Below are positions 2,890 through 50,548 of a stretch of DNA of 64,000 nt, one piece after another (the first letter of the stretch is position 1; every line of letters starts with the position of its first letter). The stretch is from positions 33,491 to 97,490 of IMG/VR virus record IMGVR_UViG_3300002220_000288; one strand, written 5' to 3'. The translations under genes were made by a program, and so were the position numbers. The DNA comes from a virus. Its lineage: Duplodnaviria; Caudoviricetes. The notes under the pieces were generated by a model. It made no database searches. It saw only the letters and a list, made by a program, of their open reading frames with translations, and was not told the DNA's origin.

Positions 2890-3212
2890 GCTGCTTCTAG
2901 CTCCTTCTTCAACGGGAGGACCCATTCCAAATCGTTAGGCGAAAAGTTATTGTGAGAGGAGAGTAGTTCTAGCAACCGCTTTCGCTCTTCCTTCTCTATC
3001 TCGAAAGTCTCTCTCCCGCTGGCATTAGCAGAGACTTCATCAATGATGATCTCGCCAGTCGGCAACGCTTGAAGGTACTGTTCTCGGTCCTTTACCTTAA
3101 TCTTGTTTCTGATATCGTAAAAGACTTCGATATCGGCCACTGATCCTCGCTGCTGTCCGAGAAGGACTTCTAGAAATATTCGCTGCTTAATGCTTAATTC
3201 AATTGATGCCAT
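2886..3212 (-). CDS. Hypothetical protein (possible tail-fibre chaperone), probably leaderless
   Basis: MASIELSIKQ start at 3212, 6 nt after TATAAT; follows the tail fibre gene. Confidence 0.6.
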   Translation of the reverse strand: MASIELSIKQRIFLEVLLGQQRGSVADIEVFYDIRNKIKVKDREQYLQALPTGEIIIDEVSANASGRETFEIEKEERKRLLELLSSHNNFSPNDLEWVLPLKKELEAA

Positions 3213-3219
3213 ATCGCCA

Positions 3220-6200
3220 TTATACAATACTGGTGATAATTCCGTTCGTTACCGTTACCGTCTTACTGTCTGCGGTGGTGAAGGTGCCGGATTTTCCGGT
3301 AGCGCCTCCAAATATATTAAAGCTAGTGGCCCCGCACCCAGCGTTCATATTGATCCCGCCGTTAGATATCCAGACTCCTCCATTGTCAATCAAGGACGCC
3401 CCTCTTAGTCGATAAGGCGCTCCACTACTGTTGTAGCTAGTGTCAAAGTAAGAGGTTGTCGATGAGCCGTTAAAGAACCCGCTGCTGGTTACGTTTGCAA
3501 AGGTGACGCTATTTCCAGTCCCGACTGCCTGACCGATTGCAATAGTGGCTGTCGTCGTCCCAGTGATAGAAATGCCAGTCCCGGCGCTTAGCCTGCTTGA
3601 TATGTTTTGCCACTGTATACTTGTTCCTGTACTAGCTAATAATTGGTTGCTGGAGCCAGCAGAGCCACCGGCAGTCAGTGCTCCGCCTATATCCATACCG
3701 TAAGTGTACATATTGCCGTACCTTAAGGATATGCCTCCTATACTCCCTAGTCCATCGAATCCTGGACGGAGTGCTCCGCTCATGGTATTAGTCGATCCAT
3801 TCAGCAAGACATTCCCTGTTATTGTCCCTGCTCCGCTGAAATCAAAATCCTTAAACCAAGCCTTTTCCCATCTTTGAGTGGTCGAGCCGAGGCTCGGATA
3901 GACGGTATCTGTGACAGCATCGCCGCCAGATACGCTCCTGAGCGCCGGTATGAAGTCGCTATAGCAAAACGTGTAATTTACAGCGGAGCCACCGGAGGCT
4001 CTCCAGCCAACTATTAGACGGCTCCCTGCATTGTCTTTGATAGTAAAATTGCTTGCACCTATCGTAGAGGCATTTGCAAAAGTATCCCAATACCCTGCCC
4101 CTCCGGCTAGGTCTACTATTCTGATTAGCCTTGACTTCACGTAGTCGCCAACGCTTCCGACTTGAGCCGTGTCTATGAACTTTGCATAAACCGATCTAAC
4201 CCTATTGCTGGATAATATCCCGATGTCATAGGTATCGCTTGCTGCCGGAATTAGCATCCCAGTGGAACCAATCGTCCACCTAGTAGTATTGTCCGTTCTG
4301 AGGTTAAGAGGCGCAGAGGTGGTCGGGCCAACGGTTCCTGTGGTTACGGCTGTAAAGGTTGGAGATGACGTAGTTGCGATATCTTGCGGCAGGCTTAGGG
4401 TCACTGATCCTGTCGATGCTGATACATTTACCTGATTAGTAGTTCCAGTCAGGGAAGTGACGCCACTATTAGTGATGGTTATTGTATTTGTGGCTGATGC
4501 AATCGAAATTCCAGTACTTGCTGCAATAGTTATTGATGGACCAGTCTGAGAGTTTATTGAGGTAATCGCGCCCACGCTTGAGACAGCCTGCCAGCTACCT
4601 ACGCCAGAAGCATCAGATGTCCAAATATACCCATTGCTTGCCCCGGTAGGGAACGTAATAGTGCCAGTGGCTGTCAAATTTGCGAATGACCCACCTCTGC
4701 TGGTGTCAATAGCAGTAACGTTATTGATCTTGATCGGGATTCCTTTGAAATCCGCTGCGTTGTTAGCCGGAGTGTTCCTGTCGGCCCATATCTGAAAGAA
4801 TGTATTCAATAAAGGATCCGCGAATCCTCTCACAATAGCTGCGCTACTGGTCCTATAGACTTCGCAGTATGGATACCAGTCGGAAGGATTATCACTTCTA
4901 GTAGTGAAGTAATTAGGACCCATGGCAGATAAGGACGATATAGACGAGCTGGAGACCTGAACAGCGCCGTAAAGATTCCCAGGCTTTATTGATACCGTTC
5001 CGCTATCAAATCCAGAGGTAGCTGTATTTGTAGCCTCTATGTTCATTCCAACTAATTCTAAAAGCCCAGCGGATGTGGCGTAAAGCCTTGGGGTAGCCGT
5101 CGTGCTGATAGATGGGGCTATGAGTAAATTCTTGAAATATCCACCCACAAAAGAAACAGGAGAAGTTATATCTCCGATAAAACCAATCACATTACTGCTG
5201 GAGTCTACCACCGTAAACCTAGTCGGCTTCCCGCCGCCCTGTCCAACGAGGATCTCCCCGGCGAAAAGTTCTGTCGTGCTAATTGCCCCGGCCGCAATCT
5301 TTCCGCCAGTGATTGAGTTGGCGACAATATCATCGCCGTCCGTGGCAACCGTCCAGATAGACCCAGTTGAACGATACAGCTTGTCGTCAGTGGTCAGGAA
5401 TACAACTGCTCCCTCTGGGTAGGAAGAAGAAGGCAGTGAGGGCAAGCTGTTTACGATTTCAACCGGCCTAATGGTAGATGCAAACGCTGCGGTTGTGATT
5501 GTAGCCGGTGCTATTTGAGTGATTCCACCACTAGAGGTTACTGAAATATTTGAAGTCGGAGGAGTTGTAGTGTTGACTACTTTCCGGTAGTTGACTGACT
5601 CAGATTTGAAAATCCAATACTCCGCGCTGCCAGGGAGAGGCCACCAATCTGCCTGAGAAGAAGGGTCTACCGTTTCAGCGACTACAGCGTAAGCGGTCTT
5701 CACTGTGCCGTTGCCTGTCCCTGTTCCTCCGGTCTTCATGAATATAACGCCGACTGTATTTGCAGAAGCGCCTATGGCAGTGAAATTAGTAGTGCCGACC
5801 GATGTTATCTCGAACATCGCGCCATTTTGGGCCGAAGTCAAAGCAGTCGCATTTGCAGTGATTGGATTATACCCTGAATCGGTTGCGATTCTTGATATTC
5901 TCGCGAAGTAGTAGTCTGGGTCGGCAGGCTTGGTGAAGTTAAACGCGAATCTACCACTCGGCACACCTGCTCTATTAGAAGTCTCGACCTGCACGCTGAA
6001 ATTTGTCACTTGGTCTGCTAGTCCCCATGCTGGAATCGTGAGAGTTTTATAGTAAGACGGTATGGTTTCGTCTGGCTGGTCGAGCCTGTAAGTGTTTTTA
6101 TTTGCTGCAATAGCAACGACGTAAGTAGCTCCTGCCGATGGCCATTCCTGCCAAGTGCCAGCGACTGCATCAGCGGCTATCTCGATCCACGCCCCAGACA

Positions 6201-7713
6201 CAGGCGTTGACATTCTTTGCCAGAAAAGAGAGTAGTAATCCGCGTCAGGCGCTGGAGTGGTTATTGTCGCGCTTACGAATATAGAAGAATTCCCTGCTTC
6301 GTCTATCGAGTATTGAAGTGCGTTAAGCAACCAAGCGCTGCTTCCGGGTTGTGTCGATGGGTTTAATGGAGTGATTCCGCCAGACGCAGGAACTGTTACG
6401 TTTACAGTTGGCGGAGTTGTGTTGTTTGCTATCTCTCTGTGGTTTACCGACCTGCATCTAAACTTCCAGTATTCAGCGTTTGTAGGAAGCGGCCAGTAGT
6501 CTACCTGCGTAAACGGGTTTATTTCACCGGCTATCCTTGTCCATTGTGCAAATACTTGCTCTGTACCTGCCGGGGGATTCGTCGTCAACTTCAACTGAGT
6601 ATTGCTGATAACTTCCGATACGATATAGGCGCTTGATTCTGGTAGATTAGGCCCGGCAGATATATATACGGTGTCGCCCGGTTGGACATGCGTGAAGTAC
6701 TGACCTCTAAATGTATCGCTATATATGCTTGATGTAGAGTTGTAAGTTGCCGTATTTCCGCTTACATCAACTATGGCAGTAGCTCCGATATTGCCAGTGA
6801 ATGTGTTACTTACGTACCAAAGTCTCTCGATGGAAGAATAGTAATACTCAGGGTCCAGTGGTTTGTCGAAATTTACGATATACCTTCCGCTTGGAATATC
6901 GGACTGAGCCTGTTTTTCTACAGAGACAAAAAAGTTCGTGACCTGCGGAGCGTCTGCCCAAGGCCCGAAAATAAGCCGCTTGTAATTTACGCCATCAGGA
7001 GGCTTGGCCGTTCTCTGTTCTTTTGTGCTTGCAGTCAGGCAGCATGGAACATTCCATCCTGTAGGCGGCCTCAGTTGCCAAGTGCCAGCCTCTGCGTCTG
7101 CTGCTATCTCCTCCCAGGCCCCATCAATCGGATTCAAATTGAAGGCAACGTTAGACTGGACACCGGCGCTAGTTGTAAGGACCAAAGACTCAAACGGAGC
7201 GGATGGATTGGCGGATATGACGTAGGTGACAGAGTTGATGTTCATCTCTTGCCCAGCTACACAGTTCTCAAACGTATTGCCAGCTTCCTTACTGGCCGAA
7301 GTAAGAGTTACCGCCGTGCCGTTTGTATCCACAAATCCAGATGCGTAATCCTGGATGAACATGGTGTAGTAGTCAACACTGGGAGGCTTGCTGCTAATGG
7401 AAGCGCTGGCAAATCCATACTGCAATCCGTCCTCTCCGGCTGAATAAACTACCGGATTAAGAGTCCAGTCTGAGGCTGCTGGCTGCGGGATTCCGCCTTC
7501 CGGCTGAGGCGGAGGAGGGTTGGTAGACTTGTCTCCGGCTGCTGATATCACGCCAGATCGCGTGAATTTCTTTGATGCAGCATCCGTCTCATCTCTCGCT
7601 GTGGTTATCTTTGAGTAAAGATCGTTGATTACCTGATTTAAGCGGTAAAGCTCTTGGTCATCCAGGTCTTCTTTTCTTACTGATAGTCTGCTATCTGGTT
7701 CTTTTGTTTCCAT
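3220..7713 (-). CDS. Large tail fibre / host-specificity protein (1497 aa)
   Basis: Ser/Thr/Gly-rich; IVANSITGGKIAAGAISTT fibre repeat; C-terminal GTFTTADSKTVTVTNGIIT motif common in phage fibres; internal duplication. Confidence 0.8.
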   Translation of the reverse strand: METKEPDSRLSVRKEDLDDQELYRLNQVINDLYSKITTARDETDAASKKFTRSGVISAAGDKSTNPPPPQPEGGIPQPAASDWTLNPVVYSAGEDGLQYGFASASISSKPPSVDYYTMFIQDYASGFVDTNGTAVTLTSASKEAGNTFENCVAGQEMNINSVTYVISANPSAPFESLVLTTSAGVQSNVAFNLNPIDGAWEEIAADAEAGTWQLRPPTGWNVPCCLTASTKEQRTAKPPDGVNYKRLIFGPWADAPQVTNFFVSVEKQAQSDIPSGRYIVNFDKPLDPEYYYSSIERLWYVSNTFTGNIGATAIVDVSGNTATYNSTSSIYSDTFRGQYFTHVQPGDTVYISAGPNLPESSAYIVSEVISNTQLKLTTNPPAGTEQVFAQWTRIAGEINPFTQVDYWPLPTNAEYWKFRCRSVNHREIANNTTPPTVNVTVPASGGITPLNPSTQPGSSAWLLNALQYSIDEAGNSSIFVSATITTPAPDADYYSLFWQRMSTPVSGAWIEIAADAVAGTWQEWPSAGATYVVAIAANKNTYRLDQPDETIPSYYKTLTIPAWGLADQVTNFSVQVETSNRAGVPSGRFAFNFTKPADPDYYFARISRIATDSGYNPITANATALTSAQNGAMFEITSVGTTNFTAIGASANTVGVIFMKTGGTGTGNGTVKTAYAVVAETVDPSSQADWWPLPGSAEYWIFKSESVNYRKVVNTTTPPTSNISVTSSGGITQIAPATITTAAFASTIRPVEIVNSLPSLPSSSYPEGAVVFLTTDDKLYRSTGSIWTVATDGDDIVANSITGGKIAAGAISTTELFAGEILVGQGGGKPTRFTVVDSSSNVIGFIGDITSPVSFVGGYFKNLLIAPSISTTATPRLYATSAGLLELVGMNIEATNTATSGFDSGTVSIKPGNLYGAVQVSSSSISSLSAMGPNYFTTRSDNPSDWYPYCEVYRTSSAAIVRGFADPLLNTFFQIWADRNTPANNAADFKGIPIKINNVTAIDTSRGGSFANLTATGTITFPTGASNGYIWTSDASGVGSWQAVSSVGAITSINSQTGPSITIAASTGISIASATNTITITNSGVTSLTGTTNQVNVSASTGSVTLSLPQDIATTSSPTFTAVTTGTVGPTTSAPLNLRTDNTTRWTIGSTGMLIPAASDTYDIGILSSNRVRSVYAKFIDTAQVGSVGDYVKSRLIRIVDLAGGAGYWDTFANASTIGASNFTIKDNAGSRLIVGWRASGGSAVNYTFCYSDFIPALRSVSGGDAVTDTVYPSLGSTTQRWEKAWFKDFDFSGAGTITGNVLLNGSTNTMSGALRPGFDGLGSIGGISLRYGNMYTYGMDIGGALTAGGSAGSSNQLLASTGTSIQWQNISSRLSAGTGISITGTTTATIAIGQAVGTGNSVTFANVTSSGFFNGSSTTSYFDTSYNSSGAPYRLRGASLIDNGGVWISNGGINMNAGCGATSFNIFGGATGKSGTFTTADSKTVTVTNGIITSIV

Positions 7714-7716
7714 GCT

Positions 7717-13700: not shown

Positions 13701-16700
13701 GAGTGCTTGCGTTTATTGGATTAGATAGGTAATCGTAGTAAACACGGTAGAAAAATGAATTCCCAGCGTCAGTCCCAGTTCCTGAAGTGAACTCAAGCCC
13801 GATGTCGGTAAAGTTCTTCTTTGTGAGGGCAGCGCCCATATCGTAAAACTTGGTTTCTACTTGATAGTAGACTGACTCGCTGTTATCCGTGTAAGTGGAC
13901 ACGTCATCGTAATCAATGAGAGCCATACTGAAAGTGGGAGTTGGCCAAGCTCCAGTCGCTATTGTCTTAGAAGCGTATAGCTTTCCGCTTGCCTTCTCTG
14001 CCGCCATTGCAGTTATTGCGGCTGGCCTCAGGTTTATCCCGTTTCGGGTTGATTCTCCGTTTGGATATTGCAATTGGGAAGGGTCGTAAACTTCGTCTAG
14101 GCTCCACCTGTCGAACAAGAGGTTATAGCGAAGAATAAAGAACCATCCATCAGAGTTGATGTAGTTGAAAAAGACTTCGTTATTCTTCTGTTGGATATTG
14201 CATAGAGGATAGTAGGTTGAGTTGTTGCGATCAAAGAAAGCTATATCGTTAACTTTCTTCCGGTTGAAGATAAAGTCAATCGCAAAAGTTACTTTCCGTA
14301 CTGATCCGCCGCCCCAAGCGTAAATACCGTCATTACTCAGGAACCATATCTCGTTATCGACGTATCCCCATGCGTGTTTGAGAACCAGTCCCCTATTTGC
14401 CGGGGTCTTAAATGGCCCAACTAGCCTTCCATTGTCCAGTCTTACGGTGTAGATTCCGTTCTGACACAAGCAGACGATCTCCCCATTAAACTCAGCGATC
14501 CCGTTAATAGGGTTATCGGGAGAAGAAATAGAAAGGACGTGGGGGTTCCCGGTGACCTCGTTTATTACAGGGAAAGATTCCGGCCTACCAGTCTTTGATG
14601 AGTAAAGGATGTGCGGATTCTTGGGGTCTCCTGCTACCCACATTCGATTAAAGGCAGAGCAGATAGTATCGCAAGCCGCGCCAGCGTTTGTATCCCAGAT
14701 TACCAGCTCGTCATTTACGTGATCGTATTGAGTATAAGTAGTGAACGATGCGGTCCCGACAGAGAGAACAATACAGGACTCTTGCTTGCCTGTTGAATTT
14801 GTTGCGCTCGTCAGGCTTGATGCACCGCCGATATTTACTACCGTTCCGGGAGTTAATATCGAGCGAAGGTTTCCGCCAGAGGGGTAAGTGATGCCAGTAA
14901 GGGTGACCGTGGATAGTCCTCCCTTCGTCAAACTCCCGACAATCCTGGCCTTGTACTCGTTCCCAATATCAGACGTAACAGGGGCATCGTTATCAAACTC
15001 AGCAATCGGAGCGCCGACAATCGAAAGGTCGTCCGCTGTATCAACGAAATTAACTACCGCCCCGTCAATATTGTCAACAATACCCACTCTCCGATAGAAT
15101 CCGTCAGCAAAAGAACCGCCAGTTCTGTAAATGCAGATCCTGTTAACTTCAGAACTAAAGCTCTGCGTATCCGTCTGATCCGCCCCTAACATGCTGACAT
15201 TGATGCCTTGGCGAATCAAATTCAGCCCGTTCTCGGGAATCATCTCGATAGACGGGTTGCTCTCCGCCCCGGTAACACCGTTCTTGTATGTGTAAACGTA
15301 TCGGTACGGAGTTAGCTTAGCCCCATAGTTAGAGTTGACGCCCTTTCCGCCGTAAGCGAAGATGCTTCCCAGCTTAAAAGAGATAACGTCTGTCGTTGTA
15401 ATTGGTCGGACAATTACTTCAACAGAAGTTATATTCTTCCACCCCAGTCCGCCAGATCCGTCGTCAACAGTCCCTGCTCCTCCAGCCGCTAAAAATGACC
15501 TCTTTGAAATCTCAACTTGACTCCATGCTCCGGTTCCTGCTTTAGATGGGGTCAGATAGGCTGGGTTTAACCCGGCTTGAGTGGTGTCGTAGTTGATCTT
15601 CTCGCCGGTCGGAATAGTGTAGTTATTGGTGTCGAGATATACGCCAGTGTTGTATTCGTTAGGAGCTGACTCCGGCCCGTATGGATCAATCGTAGAGTTA
15701 GAGGTTGCCGCATTTTGAAGCCTTTGAACCTCCCCAGGAGAGATAGCCTTCTCATAATAAGCACTCGTAGAGCCGCCAGTATAGAGTCTCAGTCGTATGT
15801 CGTAGATATTTTCAGGAGTGGAAGTGAAAAACGAAAACGAAACAGTGTCATCACTGACGTATCCCTCGACATCGTTTTGGCCACTGAAAGACAGGTCTGC
15901 CGTCAAAGTAGCAGAGGTTATGGAATAAGCCTGCCCTGCCGTGGTTGTTATGGCTGTGCTTTCATAGGCTGTTACCGCGCCACTAGGGGCCGTAGCAAAA
16001 AACGCATAGATAGCACCAGCGGAGTCAACTTTCTCAATAATCGAAGACTGTGAGCCGCACACGATATACATCCCAGGGAGCCAAGCTGCTGATGTAGAAG
16101 TGAAAGTTATTTTATAGAAGCTAGAACCTGTCGGTTGTTCCGTGGCTGTGCTAATCGTGCCGGATACCCTGGTAGAACTAATAGCGATAGATCCAGATGT
16201 CCCAGAGGCGATAATCGGAACTATCGTTACCGTGCTAGGAGTGATTGTCGCTGGCTTAGCTGGCGGCAATATCCCCCAATACTTAGCCGTAGAAGAACTG
16301 TTGTTATTGCGGAGCATGCCACGGGTGTAATCCCCGCCTGGATAGTCATTGTACCCGGTGGCAAAATAAGTCATACCAGTTGATTCGGTCTGGTCTGTCT
16401 TATAGGTAGCTATCCCTACTCTCTTGTTAGAGGTGGAGACGCTGGTTGCCAGCGAAGAGTAGTTGCCAGATGTCCCTATCTTCCGATAGAGGTTGGTGCC
16501 TTCGGAAAGAAAGAAGGTCGGCGTGGAGGTAGCGCCAATCTGTGTGACATGAAGAGAGGCTGCATAAGCAGGAGTCCCGCTAGGCCAAGATCCAGTCAGA
16601 TTAGTATGTCCGTAACGAGGGGAGAGAGACCCTTCCTGTTCGGATACAGTATTCAAAAGAAGTGAATACTGACCATCTTGCAGTTGGTTAATGTCTATCT

Positions 16701-16756: not shown

Positions 16757-17011
16757 TTAGGTCATCCGTGCTTTCAGCTTACTGGAAGTAGTATTGTAGT
16801 AAATCTCACCTACCGCAATACCAGCGGTTCCGGCTGCCGCATCATTAGCCGCCTGCGTGAATACAGAATAAAGAACTGCGTCGATTGGATTAAGAGCTAT
16901 CGTTCCGAGTCCTAATACTGTCTGGTTAGATGTAGACGCATTGGGGCTGGTGGTTAATTGCAAGTCTTCTTTGAATAGCTTGCGAGGAGTTACGGTGACC
17001 GAAGAAGGCAT
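16757..17011 (-). CDS. Small virion protein
   Basis: ANDAAAGTAGIAVGEIYY motif seen in phage fibre/decoration proteins; tightly packed. Confidence 0.55.
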   Translation of the reverse strand: MPSSVTVTPRKLFKEDLQLTTSPNASTSNQTVLGLGTIALNPIDAVLYSVFTQAANDAAAGTAGIAVGEIYYNTTSSKLKARMT

Positions 17012-17826
17012 TATGCGACCTCTAGTAGAATTTCTTGCGCGACAGCGCGGAGTAATCGAACGGCCTCTTGAGACCGATTAAGGTAGTATTTTTGGAGGGT
17101 CGTGTTCTTGACTTCGCCATCCATGCCAAAAATACGAGATAAAATCATGAACTTCACGTATGGCTTTAGGCTGTCTTGTATGTCGGGAATGTAATCATCG
17201 AGGCTGGTTATTTCCTTCTGGAAAGTGTAAGTCGTTATTTCCGTAAGGTTAGTCGCGCTGCATGTCATACCGGAAACAGTGCCAAAGAAAGGGTACGTAG
17301 CTTCCAGATAAACATCGCCAGTATAAGCAGATGCAATCGTCCCGTACAGCGGTGCTGTTGTCGTGATGTTAAAGTCAACCACTCCGCTAGTCGATGAGAT
17401 ATTTCCATATAAGCCAGCGGCGCAAGTGACTGTATTCCCGGACCATGAAGGAGCTGGCCTGATCTCGATCTGGTCTTCCTGTACTTGATCGTTCCTCCAC
17501 TCGGAAGGAATTCCATTGGGCTGCAACTGCCAGCGATAATCTGAGTTATCCCAGTAGTTTCCAGAGCTGCGGTACAGGTTTTCTTCGTCTGCGTATATAT
17601 TCGTCGGCTGGTTTACAAAGTAATCTTCATTGTAAACTCTTGTGCCAGCGACTATAGGGAGGTGGCAAATCTTCTTATAGCAATCAGAGACTTGAAGAAA
17701 ATCCCTCAAACAGTCATTCAAGATATCAAGGAAGTCGTCTTTAGATACAGTATCGCCTGTTAGCGCGCTAGGCTCTAGTAAAACGTCGCATACTTCCTGA
17801 TATAGCTTCCTGACACTTATAGCCAT
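17011..17826 (-). CDS. Head-tail adaptor/ring-like protein
   Basis: N-terminal helix ..LDILNDCLRDF and IEIRPAP motif like gp4/gp11-type adaptors. Confidence 0.55.
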   Translation of the reverse strand: MAISVRKLYQEVCDVLLEPSALTGDTVSKDDFLDILNDCLRDFLQVSDCYKKICHLPIVAGTRVYNEDYFVNQPTNIYADEENLYRSSGNYWDNSDYRWQLQPNGIPSEWRNDQVQEDQIEIRPAPSWSGNTVTCAAGLYGNISSTSGVVDFNITTTAPLYGTIASAYTGDVYLEATYPFFGTVSGMTCSATNLTEITTYTFQKEITSLDDYIPDIQDSLKPYVKFMILSRIFGMDGEVKNTTLQKYYLNRSQEAVRLLRAVAQEILLEVA

Positions 17827-17833: not shown

Positions 17834-17863
17834 ATTCTAGTCGTGGCGTTAAATCAATATCAA
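17834..17863 (-). promoter_or_regulatory. Promoter TTGATA-N18-TAGAAT, 7 nt before ATG (leaderless)
   Basis: tatcaa 17858-17863, attcta 17834-17839, ATG at 17826. Confidence 0.6.
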
Positions 17864-20999: not shown

Positions 21000-21014
21000 A
21001 GTGATGTAGTTGGG

Positions 21015-21037
21015 CCGGGAGGGTTATGCCCTCCCGG
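21015..21037 (-). other. GC-rich intergenic hairpin (no U-tract)
   Basis: CCGGGAGGG-N5-CCCTCCCGG. Confidence 0.45.
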
Positions 21038-21040
21038 TTG

Positions 21041-27264: not shown

Positions 27265-27810
27265 TTAGGCGGCAACTCCCGAATGTGCAGTAACTGCGGT
27301 CGTGATATCAGAAGAACTCTCAAGCTTCTTCCCAGCAGCCTCACTCATCTGTTTTAGCTGTTCGTTCGTGAACGGAACCCATCGAACATCACCGGAGACG
27401 CCGTACAGCCATCCGTTCGTGATGATGTGGCTCCAGCAGTTAGTAAGCCAGTGGTCGACTGTTACGCCTTGAACCCGCGCCGAGTCCTCGATATTCGGCT
27501 TCAGTGATGGGTCAACCACAACCTTGAACACCGAATCGCCGTCCTCTTCAGGTACGGAATTGATTACTGCGTTCACGATATCAGAAGAAGAGGTAACGTC
27601 CTCTCCCAGTGCCTCACTCATAGCTTGAATATCGTCACCTGATAGCATCAAGCCGCCATCGGCGTATGCTGACAAATAATTGGCAACACAAGTATTTAGG
27701 TAAGCCTGGACATTCTCGGGATCAACAGCCTCAAATACTTCATAGTCCTTAATCGGGATAGACAACTCAAGATTCACTTGAACATTCGTTGGTTTTGTGC
27801 TCTTTGCCAT
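27265..27810 (-). CDS. Hypothetical protein, probably leaderless
   Basis: Internal duplication (MSEALG..SSSDI / MSEAAG..SSSDI); TAAGAT 6 nt before ATG. Confidence 0.6.
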   Translation of the reverse strand: MAKSTKPTNVQVNLELSIPIKDYEVFEAVDPENVQAYLNTCVANYLSAYADGGLMLSGDDIQAMSEALGEDVTSSSDIVNAVINSVPEEDGDSVFKVVVDPSLKPNIEDSARVQGVTVDHWLTNCWSHIITNGWLYGVSGDVRWVPFTNEQLKQMSEAAGKKLESSSDITTAVTAHSGVAA

Positions 27811-27851
27811 GACTATATCTTACCGTTTCTGAAAGTCCAATAGATAACAAT

Positions 27852-30038
27852 TTACAACAATGCATAGTCCCTTACGCCCCAATCCTTCTCTTCTCCGTAG
27901 GAAGAATGATCGCCTTCCGGCTTTGGGTCAAAGTCTCGAAGGTCGTTTCTTGGGTCTTGTTGCTTGGATATCGGCACATGGAGATTCCTGCTTGCCAAGA
28001 CAAACATGGACTGACAGAATGGGCAATTACGTATTGTTCCAGGAGAGTCAGCCCCCCACACTTTATGGCATTTCCCGCAGCTCATCTTGTAATCGCACGT
28101 ATCTGGGGTTCTTTCAATCTTACTGGGAACAATTCCGTAGTTGTCTTCGTAATCTCCCTCGTGGGCGGTAAACAAACATATCATAGCTGCCATCACAACG
28201 TCGTCGTTAAATCCGCCCTGCGCCCCTGTCCTGAGGCTCCCGTCTATGCTAGTGAACACCTTTATTTCATCAAGAAAGCGAGGGTCTCTGGCTATGAAGA
28301 TACCTTCCTTGAGCCACCTGTCGGCTGTGACAATCAGTTTCGGCTTTGTGTTTTGAAGAGTCAGCCAGTGGGGAGCGCCAGTCGTTGTCTTCCTTCGATA
28401 GCAGTTCGGGTAAGACAGATTGTTTAACAACTGGTCGGCGGTTGAGTTTCCTGGCGTGTTGTACTCTACCGCTATCTGAGCCTCGTTATACCACTTCCCT
28501 AGCTTGGCTATCTCATAAGACAAGTCTAGGGGGTTGACGATATTGGTTCTTAGAGTAGCGACGTGGACATCCTCGCTCCCGGAGGTCCCGACTCGATTGA
28601 CCCAGGCAACCGAGAAGTCCTTGCCTTTGCCGTATCCAACGTCAACGCCAATTTGATACCGAGCGTTGGTGATCGGCTTTTCCCACACCCAGAGATGAAG
28701 GTCTTCGCCGTCGTGAAACATCGAGCAGCCTTCCAAGTGGCACTTGCGGCCTAAGTCATTATCGGAATAGCCATGAAAGTACCCATGTCGATCAAAGAAG
28801 CCTTTAAGAGGAGATGGCGCTCTTTCGGTGAAATACTCGACATTCTCAATTGCCTTCTCACTAAACACCTGTTCGCCTTTTGCGATAAAGGCTTCCTCGG
28901 CGGTAAGCGCAAGTTCCTGCTTGATCGACTTGGTATTACTGGCGTTTACTCGCTCATTCACAATGAAGTAAATCTGGTCGTCTCTTAATACGTAAGGCTC
29001 AAGAGTGCCGGAGTCGCATACTTGACAGGTGGTTCCGTCTAGGGTTCCGGTTGGCGTCTTTCTATTGAAGTACCTACCGCAGACTTTATTGCTGCATCTG
29101 CACCAATTAGACTCAACGACATCCCGCATCCGCTTTTCTTCTTCGCCAATGCGCCAGCCGGAAGGAGGAGCTAGAACTCTCTTTTTCTCAAAGAAGTAAG
29201 GCAAGAAGACAGCTTCCCAGTCGGCTTTATCTCCGAGGTTTACGCACTTCTTGTAGAAAGCATGGCTCTCCGTCCCAGCGCCCTTTGCGGTTGATTCTAA
29301 GATAGCTATCGTATCAGGGCTATTGACGAGAGCGTACTTCAAGTCTTCTTCTAGCGTTCCCTGAAGGTCAGACCAAGAGGTGAACTCTGAGCCGTGAAAA
29401 GCATTGAGGCGGTAGCCTTGGCCTAGCCCGCCTTTTCGATTCGCCCACTGTACGCGAATTAGGGAGTTCAACCCGAGTCCGCCGTCTTTAGCCGGTACGT
29501 CAAGAACAATGCCGGTGTCTAGCTTAAACGAACTACTCTTAGGCCGAAGCCACCAAGGTAACTGCCGGTAGATTGGCGACAAATAGCTATTGAACAAGTT
29601 TTGGGACTGGTCTTCGTCTTCCGATACGATCATCCCTCTACGGTTAGACCTGAACATGCAAACCCATGCCACGATACCGCAACCAAGAAGAGATAAGCCC
29701 AACTGTCGAGCCTTGATAAGACAGATTCGCTGCGGCTTCCCGCGCTTCTTCATGTCCTCTAGCTTCTGAAGGACTAACTCTTGGCCATCCCAAAGTTCAA
29801 ACAGTCGGTCGTTGCCTTCTTTATCTGATATCCAGAAGTAGTTACTAGCAGCGTACCGGAAGTCTTCCCGGCATCTTTGGAGTTCTGACGCCACAAGCAT
29901 CAACTCCTGATTGTTCAGTAACTTAAACCTGTCTTCTTCAGGCACTTTCTCGAACTTGCCAGTCTCAAAGTATTCAACGATATCCCAGACGTGAGAACTT
30001 CTTGTTCGGGACCTTAATTCTCTAGGGGGTATAATCAC
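27852..30038 (-). CDS. Terminase large subunit
   Basis: LIKARQLG Walker A, HGSE, ILESTAKG, IGVDVG..DFS nuclease, AVEYN, NDDVVMA. Confidence 0.93.
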   Translation of the reverse strand: MIIPPRELRSRTRSSHVWDIVEYFETGKFEKVPEEDRFKLLNNQELMLVASELQRCREDFRYAASNYFWISDKEGNDRLFELWDGQELVLQKLEDMKKRGKPQRICLIKARQLGLSLLGCGIVAWVCMFRSNRRGMIVSEDEDQSQNLFNSYLSPIYRQLPWWLRPKSSSFKLDTGIVLDVPAKDGGLGLNSLIRVQWANRKGGLGQGYRLNAFHGSEFTSWSDLQGTLEEDLKYALVNSPDTIAILESTAKGAGTESHAFYKKCVNLGDKADWEAVFLPYFFEKKRVLAPPSGWRIGEEEKRMRDVVESNWCRCSNKVCGRYFNRKTPTGTLDGTTCQVCDSGTLEPYVLRDDQIYFIVNERVNASNTKSIKQELALTAEEAFIAKGEQVFSEKAIENVEYFTERAPSPLKGFFDRHGYFHGYSDNDLGRKCHLEGCSMFHDGEDLHLWVWEKPITNARYQIGVDVGYGKGKDFSVAWVNRVGTSGSEDVHVATLRTNIVNPLDLSYEIAKLGKWYNEAQIAVEYNTPGNSTADQLLNNLSYPNCYRRKTTTGAPHWLTLQNTKPKLIVTADRWLKEGIFIARDPRFLDEIKVFTSIDGSLRTGAQGGFNDDVVMAAMICLFTAHEGDYEDNYGIVPSKIERTPDTCDYKMSCGKCHKVWGADSPGTIRNCPFCQSMFVLASRNLHVPISKQQDPRNDLRDFDPKPEGDHSSYGEEKDWGVRDYALL

Positions 30039-43668: not shown

Positions 43669-43947
43669 TTACCTGTTCTGCACCGTCAACTGCAAACTTC
43701 GCCTGTCGATCTCTCCTAAGTTTGTCGTAATCTGGCAGGTGACAGTATAACTCGTCCCATCCACCCCGCCCGAGATGCGGCAAGTGGAAGTGTAACTAGT
43801 GTTAGACTCAGAAACTTTAGTAAGACCAGCCGGGACGGTCCAAGAAGTACTAGAGACTGTCTCATTCGCGCCGAGCCAATCCGTCCAATCAAACGAATAG
43901 TCTAGCGTAGCGCCTGGATCTTTAATGTAGACAAACTCTACCGGCAT
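43669..43947 (-). CDS. Fibre-attachment adaptor protein, probably leaderless
   Basis: KDP...DYSFDW..WL...ETV..S.W, SGG..G..Y.V...ITT..G...R pattern. Confidence 0.7.
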   Translation of the reverse strand: MPVEFVYIKDPGATLDYSFDWTDWLGANETVSSTSWTVPAGLTKVSESNTSYTSTCRISGGVDGTSYTVTCQITTNLGEIDRRSLQLTVQNR

Positions 43948-43954: not shown

Positions 43955-43984
43955 AGGTTATCAATACACTATAGGTAATATCAA
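43955..43984 (-). promoter_or_regulatory. Promoter TTGATA-N18-TAACCT (TGn-extended), 7 nt before ATG
   Basis: tatcaa 43979-43984, aggtta 43955-43960, ATG at 43947. Confidence 0.6.
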
Positions 43985-43987
43985 CAT

Positions 43988-44032
43988 AAATAAAAACGGG
44001 ACCGGCTAAAGGAGAAAAAGCCAGTCCCGTTT
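43988..44032 (-). terminator. Intrinsic terminator with anti-SD loop
   Basis: AAACGGGACTGGCT-N11-AGCCGGTCCCGTTT-TTATTT. Confidence 0.8.
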
Positions 44033-44055
44033 CGGCGCGTCGGCGACCTGTCTAT
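43988..44055 (-). ncRNA. Candidate anti-Shine-Dalgarno sRNA A
   Basis: TGCTATAAT promoter; 14-bp stem (one G-U pair on this strand) with an 11-nt loop UUUUCUCCUUU, then a U-tract; no ORF. Confidence 0.65.
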
Positions 44056-44061
44056 ACGTAC

Positions 44062-44070
44062 ATTATAGCA
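44062..44070 (-). promoter_or_regulatory. Extended -10 promoter TGCTATAAT
   Basis: Perfect TGnTATAAT in an intergenic region. Confidence 0.75.
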
Positions 44071-44075
44071 TCGGC

Positions 44076-44279
44076 TTACATCATGGTCAGTTTTTTCGAG
44101 GAAGGCTTGATAATTTTCCCCGGAAACTCCTCAAGGGCATTGATTTTAAGCAACTCTCCGACCTCAAGCGACAGCGAAAAGGGAGAAATCTTCAACTTCT
44201 TGGCGATTTCGTCGATTGAAATGCCATTTTCCGCGTTCTTATAGACCAGAGCTACTATTTTCTTCTGATGTTTATTCAT
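44076..44279 (-). CDS. Small winged-helix/HTH DNA-binding protein
   Basis: GISIDEIAKKLKISP..L...V..L. Confidence 0.6.
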   Translation of the reverse strand: MNKHQKKIVALVYKNAENGISIDEIAKKLKISPFSLSLEVGELLKINALEEFPGKIIKPSSKKLTMM

Positions 44280-44290
44280 TTGAACCTATT

Positions 44291-44512
44291 TTAGTCGGTT
44301 TTTGACGACTCCCAAGGGCGCTTTTCAGTCCCAAGAGTGAAATTTGCGTCTAGCCGGATGTCTTTATTCGATAAAGACCAACATTCTCCGCTTTCTTTCA
44401 TGAAAACAACCCAGATCAGGTCATGTTCTTGGCTGTAGTCGATCAAAAAATGAGCAAAACCACGTCCTTTTACGGTCGTGACTGGCAGCGGAGGGTTGAT
44501 CTGGATAATCAC
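44291..44512 (-). CDS. Conserved phage hypothetical protein
   Basis: QINPPLPV.T.KG.G.A..LIDY..EHDL.WV motif. Confidence 0.65.
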   Translation of the reverse strand: MIIQINPPLPVTTVKGRGFAHFLIDYSQEHDLIWVVFMKESGECWSLSNKDIRLDANFTLGTEKRPWESSKTD

Positions 44513-44688
44513 TTAGCCATTTCCGCTGTGTTTCCATAATCCTTATCCCAAATAGGGCACCAATCAGGGCATCCTTTGTCCGCTACCTCGATTGACTTCT
44601 CGTTTTTCGGCATACACATGAAATATGCTTCTGTGGCCGAGACGACTTTAACTGCAAATCCGCATTCATGGCAAGTAGGTGTCTGCAT
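44509..44688 (-). CDS. 59-aa Cys-rich protein, probably leaderless (not in the ORF track)
   Basis: MQTPTCHEC...CPDWCP...; TGGTAAGAT 6 nt before ATG; GTGA overlap with the next gene. Confidence 0.6.
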   Translation of the reverse strand: MQTPTCHECGFAVKVVSATEAYFMCMPKNEKSIEVADKGCPDWCPIWDKDYGNTAEMAK

Positions 44689-44713
44689 GAGTATATCTTA
44701 CCATCTTGAGAGT

Positions 44714-44752
44714 AAAAAGCAAAACCCCCGGCAAAGGAGGAAAGCCGGGGGT
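44714..44752 (-). terminator. Intrinsic terminator with anti-SD loop
   Basis: ACCCCCGGC-N11-GCCGGGGGT-TTTGCTTTTT. Confidence 0.8.
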
Positions 44753-44784
44753 CAAGCCGAAAGGAGGTGATCGAAACAACCTAC
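44714..44784 (-). ncRNA. Candidate anti-Shine-Dalgarno sRNA B (16S 3'-end mimic)
   Basis: TGCTATATT promoter; contains GATCACCTCCTTTC and a terminator with loop UUUCCUCCUUU. Confidence 0.7.
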
Positions 44785-44790
44785 AACTCA

Positions 44791-44799
44791 AATATAGCA
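44791..44799 (-). promoter_or_regulatory. Extended -10 promoter TGCTATATT
   Basis: TGn + TATATT, 11 nt downstream of the upstream gene's stop. Confidence 0.6.
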
Positions 44800-46085: not shown

Positions 46086-46100
46086 TGCAAGACCAGTCTA

Positions 46101-46304
46101 CTAGGTTTCTGTCGGCTGGTCAATTTCCCACGGGAAGCGACCCCCGTCGAGGTAGTCAGACTCAACCCATATGGCGCGATTACCGTATTCGTCATGGCTT
46201 AGAGAAACAACCTTACAATTGGTCTTGGTAAGAGTGTCAAGCACGAGATCGCCCGGCTTTATGGCGGCGTGGAAGGTAGCTAGTTTCTCTAGGTATTCAT
46301 CCAT
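46101..46304 (-). CDS. Hypothetical protein
   Basis: Coupled ORF. Confidence 0.55.
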   Translation of the reverse strand: MDEYLEKLATFHAAIKPGDLVLDTLTKTNCKVVSLSHDEYGNRAIWVESDYLDGGRFPWEIDQPTET

Positions 46305-46642: not shown

Positions 46643-46654
46643 TCCATTCTCCTT

Positions 46655-46849
46655 TCATAGATTCCTAAATTGACCTTCTTTCTCCCAGGGAGGAAGAAGG
46701 TATTGGCTGTACGACTGCGCTTCTTTTCCGCGAGGAGATAATTCAATCTGGATGTACCATCCAAGCATCATTCGTATTAGCTCCCACCAATTCAAGCGAA
46801 CTACAATCATTCTTGACCATCCTTTCAGTGATTCTACTTCATAAATCAT
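46655..46849 (-). CDS. Hypothetical protein
   Basis: Likely start MIYEVES after the peptidase stop. Confidence 0.35.
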   Translation of the reverse strand: MIYEVESLKGWSRMIVVRLNWWELIRMMLGWYIQIELSPRGKEAQSYSQYLLPPWEKEGQFRNL

Positions 46850-46856
46850 AGCTGAG

Positions 46857-47279
46857 TCAATCCAAGCTACTCCACTCGCCGTTCCAAGGCAAGGTCTTTC
46901 CGGTAGAGGAGTAGCACCAACGCGCCTTACCCTGTCTGGTATCGCAATGAATGAACTTTCTAGCGACAGACACACCGACGCCCTGGAAGCGGCCAAACTC
47001 CTCGATCTTAGAGTAGAGCTGTTCCAGGGTAAGCGACGGTGCAAAAAGATCGACTGCTACGCCGAGGGTATGGCGACCGATGGAGCCGGGTTTCTTAGAT
47101 GCCTCGACGGGGTGATTCTTACAACGGTATCCGCTGGTGATAACAAGCGGGACACCGATAAAGTCTCGAAACTCCTGCAAGAGATCGACAAACTCCGGCT
47201 TAATCCCTTGCTCCTTACAGTGCTTACACCAGAACTCGGAAGCCTTGAAGTGTTTAGTTAGCTGCTTGTCTTCGGCCAT
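46857..47279 (-). CDS. Peptidase M15A (D-Ala-D-Ala carboxypeptidase-like) lysin, probably leaderless
   Basis: HF...EF.C, ITSGYRC, H..G.AVD, FIHCD.R; TTGATG-N18-TACCAT-N6-ATG upstream. Confidence 0.88.
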   Translation of the reverse strand: MAEDKQLTKHFKASEFWCKHCKEQGIKPEFVDLLQEFRDFIGVPLVITSGYRCKNHPVEASKKPGSIGRHTLGVAVDLFAPSLTLEQLYSKIEEFGRFQGVGVSVARKFIHCDTRQGKARWCYSSTGKTLPWNGEWSSLD

Positions 47280-47315
47280 GGAAAGATGGTAGCGCGGCGC
47301 GGCGCTAGACATCAA

Positions 47316-47672
47316 TCAATAAAACTGTAGCTGATAACATGGCTCACACAGTCCGTTGCACATAAGACAACTCACGCAGATTTTCCGACTGCAACATTTA
47401 CAGTTAAGAATCCCGCTTCCAGGATTTCCACAGCCGGAGCAGTCAGGGAACTTCTTTTGCGGAGCAGGCTCGCTCTTCTTGCTCATCTGCCGGTCAATGG
47501 CCGCATCGAAGTCCTTCCGCAAATCGAACGGACCCTGCGCATACATGCTGTAGGAATCTATGTAAGCGAGCGACCAACTGCCGCAATATCCGCCGTCGTA
47601 GTCATGGTGAGAGGCTTGGCTTTTAAGCCACTGATATCGCTTAGCATCGGCAATTAGTTGTTCAAGATCCAT
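47316..47672 (-). CDS. Hypothetical protein with a C-terminal zinc finger
   Basis: DAKRYQWL..DAAID motif and Cys-rich tail. Confidence 0.6.
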   Translation of the reverse strand: MDLEQLIADAKRYQWLKSQASHHDYDGGYCGSWSLAYIDSYSMYAQGPFDLRKDFDAAIDRQMSKKSEPAPQKKFPDCSGCGNPGSGILNCKCCSRKICVSCLMCNGLCEPCYQLQFY

Positions 47673-47878
47673 TACTTCCGCAACTCCCTTACGATTGCAA
47701 CAAAGACAACTACTAGGAAGATAGTAGTAAAGAACGCAAACGGAATCCAGATCGGGGCAAGCACCCAGACCCAAGACCAGCCGATATAGCCGGTTAGTTT
47801 GAGTCCGATAAACAAAATCGTAAGCAGGCTAAAGAACGGGGTGGTATTGACTACGGTGGTTTTATCTTGGTTATTCAT
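47672..47878 (-). CDS. Small membrane protein
   Basis: LLTILFIGLKLTGYIGWSWVWVLAPIW. Confidence 0.7.
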   Translation of the reverse strand: MNNQDKTTVVNTTPFFSLLTILFIGLKLTGYIGWSWVWVLAPIWIPFAFFTTIFLVVVFVAIVRELRK

Positions 47879-48080
47879 ATCCTTCTCCATCACTCCATGC
47901 GTTATTAGCAGTAGCCCAAAGGTCAATAAAGTCCATTGGCACTAGATCGTCGCTCCAAGTTCCTTCTCTTTTCATGAAAGCCTTCCACGGTTCCCAGTAC
48001 TTACTAATGATCTCATCGTCGGACATGGTGACAAAAGTCTGCTCATCTCCGCTTTTCACTAAACGAGTCCAGTATCGCAT
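47871..48080 (-). CDS. Hypothetical protein
   Basis: EII..YW..W...M, W...NAW pattern. Confidence 0.6.
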   Translation of the reverse strand: MRYWTRLVKSGDEQTFVTMSDDEIISKYWEPWKAFMKREGTWSDDLVPMDFIDLWATANNAWSDGEGYE

Positions 48081-48087
48081 CGCCGAC

Positions 48088-48450
48088 TTATCCCCAAGAA
48101 GTATCCCAATAAACGAAAGAGGGTTTGTTTTTCATCATGCGAATCATGGCCTCGGTACCGCGACTCTTCCCGTCCCAGAGAGCAATTAGTGCGTCAGCAG
48201 CATCGGCCATTTGCTGATTACGGATCATTCCGGCAGATTTGCCGAACTCATTCCACTGAGCAGGAAACCGTTCACAGGGAATGCCTTTCGACTTAGCCCA
48301 CCACTCACCTGCTAAGTCAGCGCCTTTCGCAACTCCCGAAATAACAGTCGTTACAGTAAACCCGGAGTCACGAATGGCTGATTCAATTCCGAGAACCCCG
48401 CCCCTATATCCTCTTGATCCAGCAATGATAATTCTCATCGCTACTCCCAC
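48088..48450 (-). CDS. SLOG (YspA/DUF2493-like) protein
   Basis: IIIAGSR, VISG.AKGAD, W...GKSAG..RN..M, WDGKSRGT. Confidence 0.85.
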   Translation of the reverse strand: MGVAMRIIIAGSRGYRGGVLGIESAIRDSGFTVTTVISGVAKGADLAGEWWAKSKGIPCERFPAQWNEFGKSAGMIRNQQMADAADALIALWDGKSRGTEAMIRMMKNKPSFVYWDTSWG

Positions 48451-48839
48451 ACATAAGACTTAACCATCTTATAGACGCGGTAATCGCTGTATTGATTAAA
48501 CACATGAGAGTTGTTGTCCAGCATGACGGATCCATCCCACCCCCACTCACCGGCCTTCAAAGGGCGTTTTTCGCCAGTCTCGGTAAAGCTATAAACAGCT
48601 CTCTTAACTAAGGGCTTCAGGATAAAGCGAGGAGAATGTTGAGTGACCGGCGCATCATCACTAGCTGTTTTGACAAGCCCAAAAGTGTCGATGAATTTAT
48701 CGCCTGTCGAGGGTGGCCGAAACCCATCAATCTTATACCCTTCCGGGGTCCCTCTATCCAGGATGACTTGCGAGTAGATATCCGTTACAGAGACTTTTAC
48801 CTGAAACGACAATTCATTTAAGTTGACTGATTCATTCAT
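48441..48839 (-). CDS. Hypothetical protein, probably leaderless
   Basis: TTGACT-N17-CATAAT-N6-ATG (MNESVNL). Confidence 0.6.
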   Translation of the reverse strand: MNESVNLNELSFQVKVSVTDIYSQVILDRGTPEGYKIDGFRPPSTGDKFIDTFGLVKTASDDAPVTQHSPRFILKPLVKRAVYSFTETGEKRPLKAGEWGWDGSVMLDNNSHVFNQYSDYRVYKMVKSYVWE

Positions 48840-48870
48840 TGTTCTATTATGGGGGAGGAGTGTGGTTAAG

Positions 48871-49248
48871 TCAAGACTCCTCATCCGCACTATACTGAAA
48901 ACCATCCGGGCCAATGAAGAACTTGATATAGTCGCCGCCGCTCAACAGGAACTGGATATAGGTCCGCCTGCTCTCTTCGAACTCATCCCGGTCATGCTGC
49001 GTAATATCTTCAATCGTCCTACCGATGAAATGACCAATGCACTCCCTGATGTTTATGTAATCTGGCGGACACACACTACTAGACGGATCAGAAGCCGCTA
49101 TCTCGGCGGCCTCGGCTAATTCATCAGCAAACAGCTTAATTGAATGAACCGCGCCGATCCCGTCCGGCCCGGAAACCCCGTCCGTCACTGTAATCAATAA
49201 AGCCTTCCTGCCTTCAATATCGCTATGCGCAAAAGAAACACTTCTCAT
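48871..49248 (-). CDS. Hypothetical protein
   Basis: 125-aa ORF, GGAG RBS. Confidence 0.55.
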   Translation of the reverse strand: MRSVSFAHSDIEGRKALLITVTDGVSGPDGIGAVHSIKLFADELAEAAEIAASDPSSSVCPPDYINIRECIGHFIGRTIEDITQHDRDEFEESRRTYIQFLLSGGDYIKFFIGPDGFQYSADEES

Positions 49249-49376
49249 TCACAATTCTCCACGTTCAGGCGATTATTAAATGCCCCGTGATTAAATGGCT
49301 CAAAGTAAACCGGATCGTGAATCCGGGGGGCGGAAGCCTCATCCATTCCATGTAAGGAATGGAGCAACCTGCGCAT
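49245..49376 (-). CDS. 43-aa leaderless microprotein candidate
   Basis: TATAAT-N7-ATG (MRRLLHSLHG...); stop overlaps the next start (ATGA). Confidence 0.4.
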   Translation of the reverse strand: MRRLLHSLHGMDEASAPRIHDPVYFEPFNHGAFNNRLNVENCE

Positions 49377-49587
49377 TAGCTTCATTATACAACACCCCAA
49401 TTATCCAGCGATTCTCAACCATGGCAATAAGCAAAGGCGTGTCATGTCAAACCTACGCCAATTTGCAGTTTTCCCGATGTCGCCGAAGCCGACTTCGGGA
49501 ACATCCCGCTTTCTTATGTATCAAAACTACAGACATAGCATACATAAAAGGGTTTAAGTATGGAGGGAGGGACTAGCGCCAATGTCG

Positions 49588-49836
49588 TTATTTACGGATA
49601 AGCTTCGGATGCCGACCAACCTCATCTTTATCGTAATACCGCTTACCGTCCTTAGGTCCGTCCCACTTGTTCACTACCTCATCCACTACCGGCAGAACCG
49701 TACACTCATCATCAAATCGCAGCATCGCCTCGCTGATCGCCATCCGCAACTTCCGGTTACACATCCGCTTCCACAACTTCTCAGATCGAGAGGTAGTATT
49801 GCCGCCAATGGGATGCTTCTTAAATGATCCACTCAT
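49588..49836 (-). CDS. Small basic protein, probably leaderless
   Basis: MS.S.KKHP....S.K.WKR..NRK.R..W..PKDGK motif; TGATACCAT-N6-ATG. Confidence 0.7.
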   Translation of the reverse strand: MSGSFKKHPIGGNTTSRSEKLWKRMCNRKLRMAISEAMLRFDDECTVLPVVDEVVNKWDGPKDGKRYYDKDEVGRHPKLIRK

Positions 49837-49849
49837 ATACGGATGGTAT

Positions 49850-50548
49850 CACCGAACCGAATATTGACAGATAAGGTTGATAATTAAGCCCGATGATTGA
49901 CAATCTTCTTAGGCAAGGTTGACAAGTGCGGTTTTGACCCCCGGCAGGCAATGGTACTAAGGAGAGGGAAGTACTATGGATACAGCTCGAAAATCTGAGT
50001 CAGTTACTGTCAGATTTTTGGCAATATATAGTACCGGGAAGGTCAAAGTACTACGAAATGGCCGGTTCTTTGGCCTAAAACATCCGCTACTCCATAAGCA
50101 GGGTTTATACAACAGCACATAACATATTCTATGCCCATGCCACATAAGTATCGTTTTGCTAGCTAGGGGGGATAGGGTTTGTATAAGTTTGGTTTATGTT
50201 GGGGGATTTTTTCTATAAAAAATTGAAAATATGGTTGTGGAGGCTGCCACCCCCATGCCCGTCCGTCCCTGGCTCACCCCCACCCGCTGCGCCTAAGCCG
50301 CTCGTTTATCGCTGCGCCGGTGTCAACTTCCGTTGTCTTGAGTCTCAGTCTGCGCCGGTTGTCGCTGCTGTCAACTTCCGTTGCCTGGCTTCCCCTGGAG
50401 TGCTGCCGTTTCCCTGGAAGGGCGGCTTCCCCGGCTTCCCCGGCTTCCCATGACGGGCTAATCTTCCCTTCCCCATACGTCGCGCATATACAAGAGATAG
50501 GCTAGGGGGGCATGAAGGATGTTTAATTGTTCTATGCCTAATTAGCTA
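49850..50548. other. Non-coding strand-switch region (candidate terminus, packaging site or origin)
   Basis: Genes diverge here; no credible ORF; short direct repeats and G/C runs. Confidence 0.55.
50287..50449 (+). repeat. Short direct repeats
   Basis: TGTCAACTTCCGTTG at 50321 and 50369; CTGCGCC x3; GGCTTCCC(C) in tandem x3 at 50424-50449, plus one at 50387. Confidence 0.7.

Follow-up and report, generated by a model that had tools for sequence, protein, structure and literature searches.

Candidate leaderless genes behind putative promoters that abut the start codon on one arm of an uncultured phage genome

How is a phage gene expressed when a promoter-like hexamer, rather than a Shine-Dalgarno (SD) sequence, lies directly in front of its ATG? 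The question is raised by the final 64 kb (the window) of the 97,490-bp IMG/VR phage contig IMGVR_UViG_3300002220_000288, for which nine genes on the minus strand had been proposed to be leaderless, each having a -10 box that ends 6-7 nucleotides (nt) before the ATG. Our analysis suggests that six, perhaps seven, of the genes on this arm are likely to be transcribed from a sigma-70-type promoter that abuts the ATG and thus to yield leaderless mRNAs. Named by the window position of their start codons, the supported genes are 17826, 27810, 43947, 44688, 48839 and 49836, with 47279 as a plausible seventh, while 3212 and 49376 are better explained otherwise. Leaderless expression is a known mode and is here restricted to one genome arm. 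What could be new is only the arm-wide partition, together with a possible link to neighbouring RNAs with CU-rich loops.

The contig (G000) is circularly permuted relative to a 94-kb relative (G001) and consists of two arms. The plus arm carries the plus-strand genes from about 83.7 kb through the contig ends to 24 kb and comprises replication and accessory genes, and the minus arm carries the minus-strand genes from 83.3 kb down to 24 kb, namely small genes and those for the endolysin, terminase, portal, major head protein, tail proteins and giant proteins. For comparison we used the related phage records G001, G002 (102.7 kb, roughly 70% protein identity to G000), G003 and G004, the distant records G005 and G006, and 14 loci of a 271-amino-acid (aa) protein family.

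All nine arrangements of hexamer, 6-7 nt and ATG are present on the minus strand, and the proposed lack of a properly spaced SD holds for each of them. Duplex energies with the anti-SD range from +1.9 to -6.0 kcal/mol around a background median of about -2.8 kcal/mol, leaving no usable SD at any of the nine, as opposed to -11.5 kcal/mol at gene 46642, one of the minus-arm genes for which an SD had been pointed out. Additional promoter elements, as noted for several sites in the original prediction, can be described as follows: a -35-like box with four to five of six consensus matches, at a spacer of 16-18 nt and kept in relatives, lies before 17826, 43947, 47279, 48839 and 49836, and a TGn extension is found at 43947, 44688 and 49836. 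At 27810 and 3212 there is no such -35 box, and at 44688 it is weak and a TGn is present instead.

The comparison with related phages is decisive for the putative leaderless signal. We scanned the 47 minus-arm ATGs that are the first of their open reading frame (ORF) and are conserved in G002 for a TAnnnT hexamer present in both genomes at equal spacing, 0-25 nt upstream. Five such conserved hexamers lie at 6 nt and two at 7 nt, and only two are spread over the other 24 spacings, a peak with a P-value of about 5e-7. At 6-7 nt, no conserved TAnnnT precedes any of 152 internal ATGs or any plus-arm start, the conserved hexamers of the plus arm being located only 20 and 23 nt upstream, as leadered promoters would have them. 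Positions A2 and T6 of the hexamer are found at equal distance from the ATG in 17 of 17 site-relative pairs covering seven sites, and the start codon is invariably ATG in the close clade. The intervening spacers have diverged (identity 0.24-0.56 at six of the seven sites; 0.76 at 48839, whose sole relative is close). Two -10 boxes located 8 nt before 44279 and 35155 had been considered as extra candidates and are not conserved at fixed spacing, which indicates that the test is specific. The SD-less starts 20999, 107, 37976 and 18564, also tried as additional candidates, have no conserved -10 at fixed spacing. A tblastn search of stop-to-stop ORFs for conserved N-termini was dropped because alignments between close relatives extend into non-coding DNA.

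At the six supported sites the product has a conserved N-terminus, and the ORF offers no start codon ahead of the ATG, or none besides it. These sites come after terminators or sit in intergenic gaps at the heads of transcription units, in which the downstream genes have weak SDs or are stop/start coupled (Table 1). That the genes head units with coupled downstream genes, as had been proposed, applies to 17826, 27810, 44688 and 48839; 3212 lies at an intra-operon junction.

Table 1. Window coordinates of the candidate genes and of the putative promoter elements in front of them.
Feature	Coordinates	Strand	Remark
TATAAT (3219-3224), 6 nt, ATG 3212	3212..3224	-	promoter unlikely
Gene for 271-aa virion protein, best-supported leaderless candidate	17011..17826	-	ATG 17826, first start of ORF
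Putative promoter TTGATA (17858-17863), 18 nt, TAGAAT (17834-17839), 7 nt, ATG	17834..17863	-	
181-aa gene between terminase and portal, leaderless candidate	27265..27810	-	ATG 27810, first start of ORF
-10-like TAAGAT, 6 nt before ATG, no canonical -35	27817..27822	-	
Gene for 92-aa fibre-tail adaptor (PF23148 Gp77), leaderless candidate	43669..43947	-	Pfam E=3.4e-27, ATG 43947
Putative promoter TTGATA (43979-43984), 18 nt, TAACCT (43955-43960), 7 nt, ATG	43955..43984	-	directly 3' of terminator hairpin
59-aa Cys-rich gene, leaderless candidate	44509..44688	-	ATG 44688, first start of ORF
-10-like TAAGAT with TGn, 6 nt before ATG	44695..44700	-	directly 3' of terminator
Endolysin gene (Peptidase_M15_3, PF08291), start ambiguous	46857..47279	-	leaderless candidate ATG 47279
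Candidate promoter TTGATG (47310-47315), 18 nt, TACCAT (47286-47291), 6 nt, ATG	47286..47315	-	
132-aa gene, leaderless candidate	48441..48839	-	ATG 48839
Putative promoter TTGACT (48869-48874), 17 nt, CATAAT (48846-48851), 6 nt, ATG	48846..48874	-	10/12 consensus matches
TTGTATAAT / TATAAT (49384-49389), then 77-nt structured RNA with intrinsic terminator	49300..49389	-	
82-aa basic protein gene, first gene of the minus arm, leaderless candidate	49588..49836	-	ATG 49836, first start of ORF
Putative promoter CTGTCA (49865-49870), 16 nt, TACCAT (49843-49848) with TGn, 6 nt, ATG	49843..49870	-	divergent control region

The strongest case is 17826. The N-terminus M[AP]ISVR of its product is kept in 38 homologues, and within codons 2-6 the serine and arginine codons switch synonymously between codon families, from codon 2 on; this protein-level constraint indicates that translation begins at ATG 17826. 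Upstream, the arrangement TTGATA-18-TA[GC]AAT-7-ATG is common to five genomes with an identity of 1.0 in the -35 box, 0.93 in the -10 box and 0.41 in the spacer, whose sequence is unrelated while its length of 18 nt is exact. Two distant loci encoding homologues of 39-40% identity (L018 and L019) also show a terminator, TTGnTT, 18 nt and a -10 box, followed by the ATG after 10 and 8 nt, respectively. At 27810, whose product begins with MAKS in six genomes, TAAGAT, TAATAT or CATAAT is found 6 nt before the ATG in all six; in G005, where the protein is only 38% identical, the -10 is kept and the rest of the intergenic sequence is different.

Two sites follow terminators directly. The adaptor gene 43947 (N-terminus MPVEF or MPVDF, kept in G002) has a TGn in front of its -10, and its counterpart in G002 reads terminator, then TTGAGA-18-TAATAT-7-ATG, with a spacer identity of 0.44. 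PF23148 corresponds to the podophage GP4 fibre-tail adaptor gp77, and the virion module probably begins at this candidate leaderless unit. Gene 44688 has homologues in G001 (94%) and G002 (49%). In G002 the terminator is not the same one, and TAGAAT-6-ATG comes after it; the -10 has an identity of 0.78 and the spacer one of 0.38.

The upstream context of 48839 differs from that of its homologue in G001 (54% aa identity), where there is no in-frame start past the homology breakpoint. The promoter is the same: both hexamers are identical, with changes confined to the spacer and the discriminator. Gene 49836, whose product is 94% identical in G002, is preceded there by TTGTCA-17-TACCAT-6-ATG and in G001 by TACAAT-6-ATG, at a spacer identity of 0.24. 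The G001 homologue (L008, around 15452-15470) has an extra G in the G-run after the ATG, so that the frame is lost and a stop follows after five codons; the extra base may be due to faulty assembly or may be a genuine frameshift. Between the arms, window positions 49850-49930 contain three TTGACA boxes (TGTCAA, minus strand) spaced 33 and 21 nt apart, which have no matching -10, are partly kept in G002 and look like operator sites, one of them overlapping the -35 of the putative 49836 promoter. The layout resembles that of lambda, whose cI gene, the first on one side of a divergent control region with repeated operator sites, has an mRNA beginning at its AUG; in 1992 Shean and Gottesman reportedly described this leaderless cI mRNA from PRM. 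Unlike cI, the 82-aa product has no recognisable repressor domain in a profile search, and we see no sign of a temperate phage here.

For the endolysin gene we lean towards ATG 47279 as a leaderless start. The endolysin of G002 is preceded by TTGCCA-18-TACCAT-6-ATG with an unrelated spacer, and a separate freshwater clade has TTGnnn-17/18-TAnnAT-5-ATG in front of its endolysin, so that a putative promoter abutting the endolysin start recurs. There are, however, an in-frame TTG at 47315 and an ATG at 47312, located 12 and 11 codons upstream of 47279 and directly after the upstream stop codon. The 12-codon extension starting there is protein-like and similar in G002 and in protein P0040 (three genomes), which speaks against the internal start. 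Eight nt past the endolysin stop begins a minus-strand ORF of 64 codons (46655-46849), rich in tryptophan and with hydrophobic stretches, which could be a holin or spanin candidate.

The two remaining sites have other likely explanations, so that the proposed set of nine is reduced to six genes supported by phylogenetic footprinting and the plausible seventh. At 3212, the TATAAT arises from a valine codon (GTA), the TAA that ends the upstream 1497-aa gene and a T; the ATG follows that stop after 7 nt and a -35 is absent (two of six matches). The hexamer is kept in G002 because the C-terminal peptide of the upstream gene is conserved, and it is probably not a promoter but part of an intra-operon junction. 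Genome position 29891 (minus strand), which at window -3599 falls outside the window, shows a junction of this kind: there the gene for a 1778-aa ejected protein has TAAACT 6 nt before its ATG, kept in G002, and the ATG follows the upstream stop after 15 nt. At 49376, the 77 nt from the ATG onwards fold with -29.5 kcal/mol (z=-3.35) into a 5' hairpin and a terminator (49310-49326), a second in-frame ATG lies at 49385, and the ORF is conserved for 18 aa only, in G001. The fold and the short conservation suggest that this TATAAT probably drives a small RNA or the attenuated leader of the SD-bearing gene 49248, and that 49376 is not a leaderless gene. In its architecture the 49300-49389 RNA resembles two units at 43988-44799 that had earlier been described as small RNAs, and it is possibly a third.

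The restriction of the candidates to the minus arm goes together with a marked difference in SD strength between the arms, for which the original prediction had suggested comparing pairing energies. With the same start-calling procedure applied to the minus arm (window 1-49900) and the plus arm (window 50200-64000 and genome 1-24000), the median energy is -9.2 kcal/mol on the plus arm, where 73% of the starts are at or below -8, and -6.0 kcal/mol on the minus arm, where 17% are (Mann-Whitney P=9e-8). G001 (P=5e-6) and G002 (P=0.002) show this difference as well, and the distant G005 does not. Called ATG starts with TAnnnT at 6-7 nt are distributed between the virion arm and the other arm as 4:0 in G000, 4:0 in G001, 4:1 in G002 and 2:0 in G005. 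In agreement with the initial claim, no such start was found on the plus arm in the ORF scan of G000, in the conserved-spacing test or among the called starts, and all candidates lie on the virion/lysis arm and none on the replication arm.

The arrangement suggests the following route of expression. A -10 hexamer (TAnnnT or CATAAT) ending 6-7 nt before the ATG would have host RNA polymerase initiate at the A of the start codon or at the preceding base. In five of the seven putative promoters this hexamer is joined, over 16-18 nt, by a -35 of the TTGnnn type (CTGTCA at 49836); in the other two it would act alone or with a TGn. The commonest gap of 6 nt would place this A at the canonical +1, while a gap of 7 nt with a purine preceding the ATG would allow a start at -1 or +1. 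The resulting mRNA would have neither leader nor SD and would be translated from its 5'-terminal AUG through the 70S/IF2 pathway. A profile search of the 97-kb record gave no match to Sigma70_r2 or Sigma70_r4, which small divergent sigma factors could escape, and found no IF3_C domain; the host holoenzyme and the general 5'-AUG pathway would therefore be the simplest readers of these genes.

Several observations weigh against this interpretation. Within the single genome the enrichment is only modest, TAnnnT lying at 6-7 nt before 7 of 84 minus-arm ORF-first ATGs, compared with 2.45% of all sense ATGs (P=0.005). The nine hexamers are loose, matching TATAAT in three to six of six positions, and weak at TAACCT (3/6), TAAGAT and TACCAT (4/6); three promoters have a suboptimal spacer of 18 nt; and 27810 and 44688 are without a convincing -35. 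The structure of the 5' ends does not distinguish the candidates from other genes (P=0.45, 49376 aside). The promoter rules were taken from model bacteria and may not be those of the host, and the sequencing runs that contain the phage are DNA only (hydrocarbon, freshwater and subsurface metagenomes), with none of RNA. One could suppose that the reader of the sequence simply picked ATGs with a loose TAnnnT hexamer nearby by chance, since 2.45% of all sense ATGs carry one at 6-7 nt. A generic sigma-70 -35/-10 consensus scan of 42-52 kb finds no enrichment (15 sites versus 11.3 +/- 3.2 expected), and at three of the nine sites the ORF has an earlier start codon than the ATG. With the conserved-spacing peak and the clean internal-ATG and plus-arm controls, chance is nevertheless rejected for the set as a whole, for which we regard it as extremely improbable, and may still account for single sites such as 3212.

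It is unlikely, in our view, that the hexamers are not promoters at all and that the genes are translated without an SD from longer polycistronic mRNAs, by termination-reinitiation, 70S scanning or binding of S1 to an A/U-rich stretch, the TAnnnT being an RNA-level or coding by-product. Such a view is attractive for 3212 and genome position 29891, which lie 7-15 nt past an upstream stop (at 3212 within the hexamer), and for 27810, which has neither a terminator nor a -35 between it and the preceding terminase gene, and minus-arm genes are generally weak in SD. It leaves unexplained, however, that five sites retain a TTGnnn box (CTGTCA at 49836) at exactly 16-18 nt across a spacer of free sequence, that the hexamers peak at the canonical 6-7 nt, and that in three genomes 43947 and 44688 come immediately after terminator hairpins. 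Alternatively, the promoters could be real and the mRNAs have short leaders, or the arrangement could be the normal start style of a leaderless-rich host of the Deinococcota or Actinobacteria type, devoid of phage-specific meaning; we consider this quite unlikely. A 1-nt leader is possible at the 7-nt sites, where a purine precedes the ATG, and in distant relatives the -10 is located 8-10 nt from the ATG, but leaders of 0-3 nt would functionally still be leaderless. Regarding the host, TANNNT lies 6-7 bp before the ORF in about a third of D. radiodurans genes (PMC12340547), whereas the plus arm has none of these starts and has strong SDs; this asymmetry is kept in G001 and G002, and a general habit of the host would by itself not differ between the arms. 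Transcription from promoters abutting the ATG is the interpretation that we favour.

Comparable starts are known from other systems. In Deinococcus-Thermus, experiments have validated the '-10 motif adjacent to ORF', a TANNNT that typically lies 6-7 bp ahead of the start codon, as a leaderless promoter. Its positions 1, 2 and 6 are critical, no ribosome-binding site (RBS) is present and the -10 alone can suffice, with a -35 at 17 bp boosting expression; N-terminal extensions in annotations are in some cases artefacts with the -10 inside them (PMC12340547). 'TA-led' leaderless genes have been described in bacteria generally (Zheng et al. 2011, PMC3160421). The phage sites share the TANNNT 6-7 nt before the start and the lack of an RBS, and the extension of endolysin 47279 may likewise be a -10-containing artefact. 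Unlike the Deinococcus genes, they belong to a genome of 49% G+C, are few, head units on one arm and mostly have a -35, in three cases at 18 nt. In the Thermus phage phiYS40, most middle and late mRNAs are leaderless with mapped starts, and changes of host IF2/IF3 are reported (Sevostyanova et al. 2007, as summarised in PMC3594737). As far as this summary goes, phiYS40, whose programme includes a mode of translation initiation specific to a gene class, resembles the present phage with its candidate leaderless class alongside leadered genes, the class being later-timed in phiYS40 and marked by arm position here, and differs in that here only six to seven unit heads are candidates and no IF3 domain is encoded. 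The late promoters of phage T4 consist of a -10-only TATAAATA read by the phage sigma gp55, and 27810 and 44688 are similar in that late-type genes are preceded by a -10-like box but by no convincing -35; unlike in T4, most sites have a -35-like box, the hexamers fit the host TATAAT rather than a word specific to the phage, and the profile search found no sigma-like gene.

The phage itself stands apart from cultured phages, among which no near match was found; for its portal and terminase the matches, at 24-26% identity, are confined to remote phages that infect various Gram-negative hosts. A tRNA search of the window found none, a scan of genome contigs for hosts using the 271-aa family gave no match, and the ESM Atlas returned viral clusters only. 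In IMG/VR, the endolysin and the 82-aa protein retrieved G001, G002 and one distant locus only.

Some RNA features of the minus arm deserve mention. The terminator hairpins just upstream of the putative 43947 and 44688 promoters (43988-44010 and 44714-44760, minus strand) are CU-rich and anti-SD-like, their loops or flanks reading CUCCUUU and CCUCC in G000, G001 and G002, and the spacer of the 48839 promoter contains CTCCTCCCC. Upstream of the SD-less start 20999 of a 387-aa gene, where no -10 fits, a hairpin (21000-21040, minus strand) is kept in five genomes with the 5' arm GGGAGGG, followed by CCCAACTAnAnC.

If the six or seven starts are indeed leaderless, gene callers that rely on RBSs will misplace or miss them; the endolysin in public data, for example, carries an extension of 11-12 residues. 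The putative promoters in addition would mark transcription units of an uncultured phage lineage without a cultured relative. Beyond the single genes, candidate leaderless unit heads and weak SDs on one arm and strong SDs on the other are kept in two relatives, a pattern suggesting that the phage separates gene classes at translation initiation, as phiYS40 does. If it does, this separation would be linked to the putative anti-SD RNAs encoded nearby; the earlier suggestion that leaderless mRNAs escape such RNAs is speculative. A more far-reaching reading, which we rate as very unlikely, is that the arms use different translation initiation and that this partition underlies an early-to-late switch, possibly via the terminator RNAs with CUCCUUU and CCUCC loops upstream of the 44688 and 43947 promoters: these small RNAs would mask the strong SDs of host and early phage mRNAs and spare the leaderless late mRNAs.

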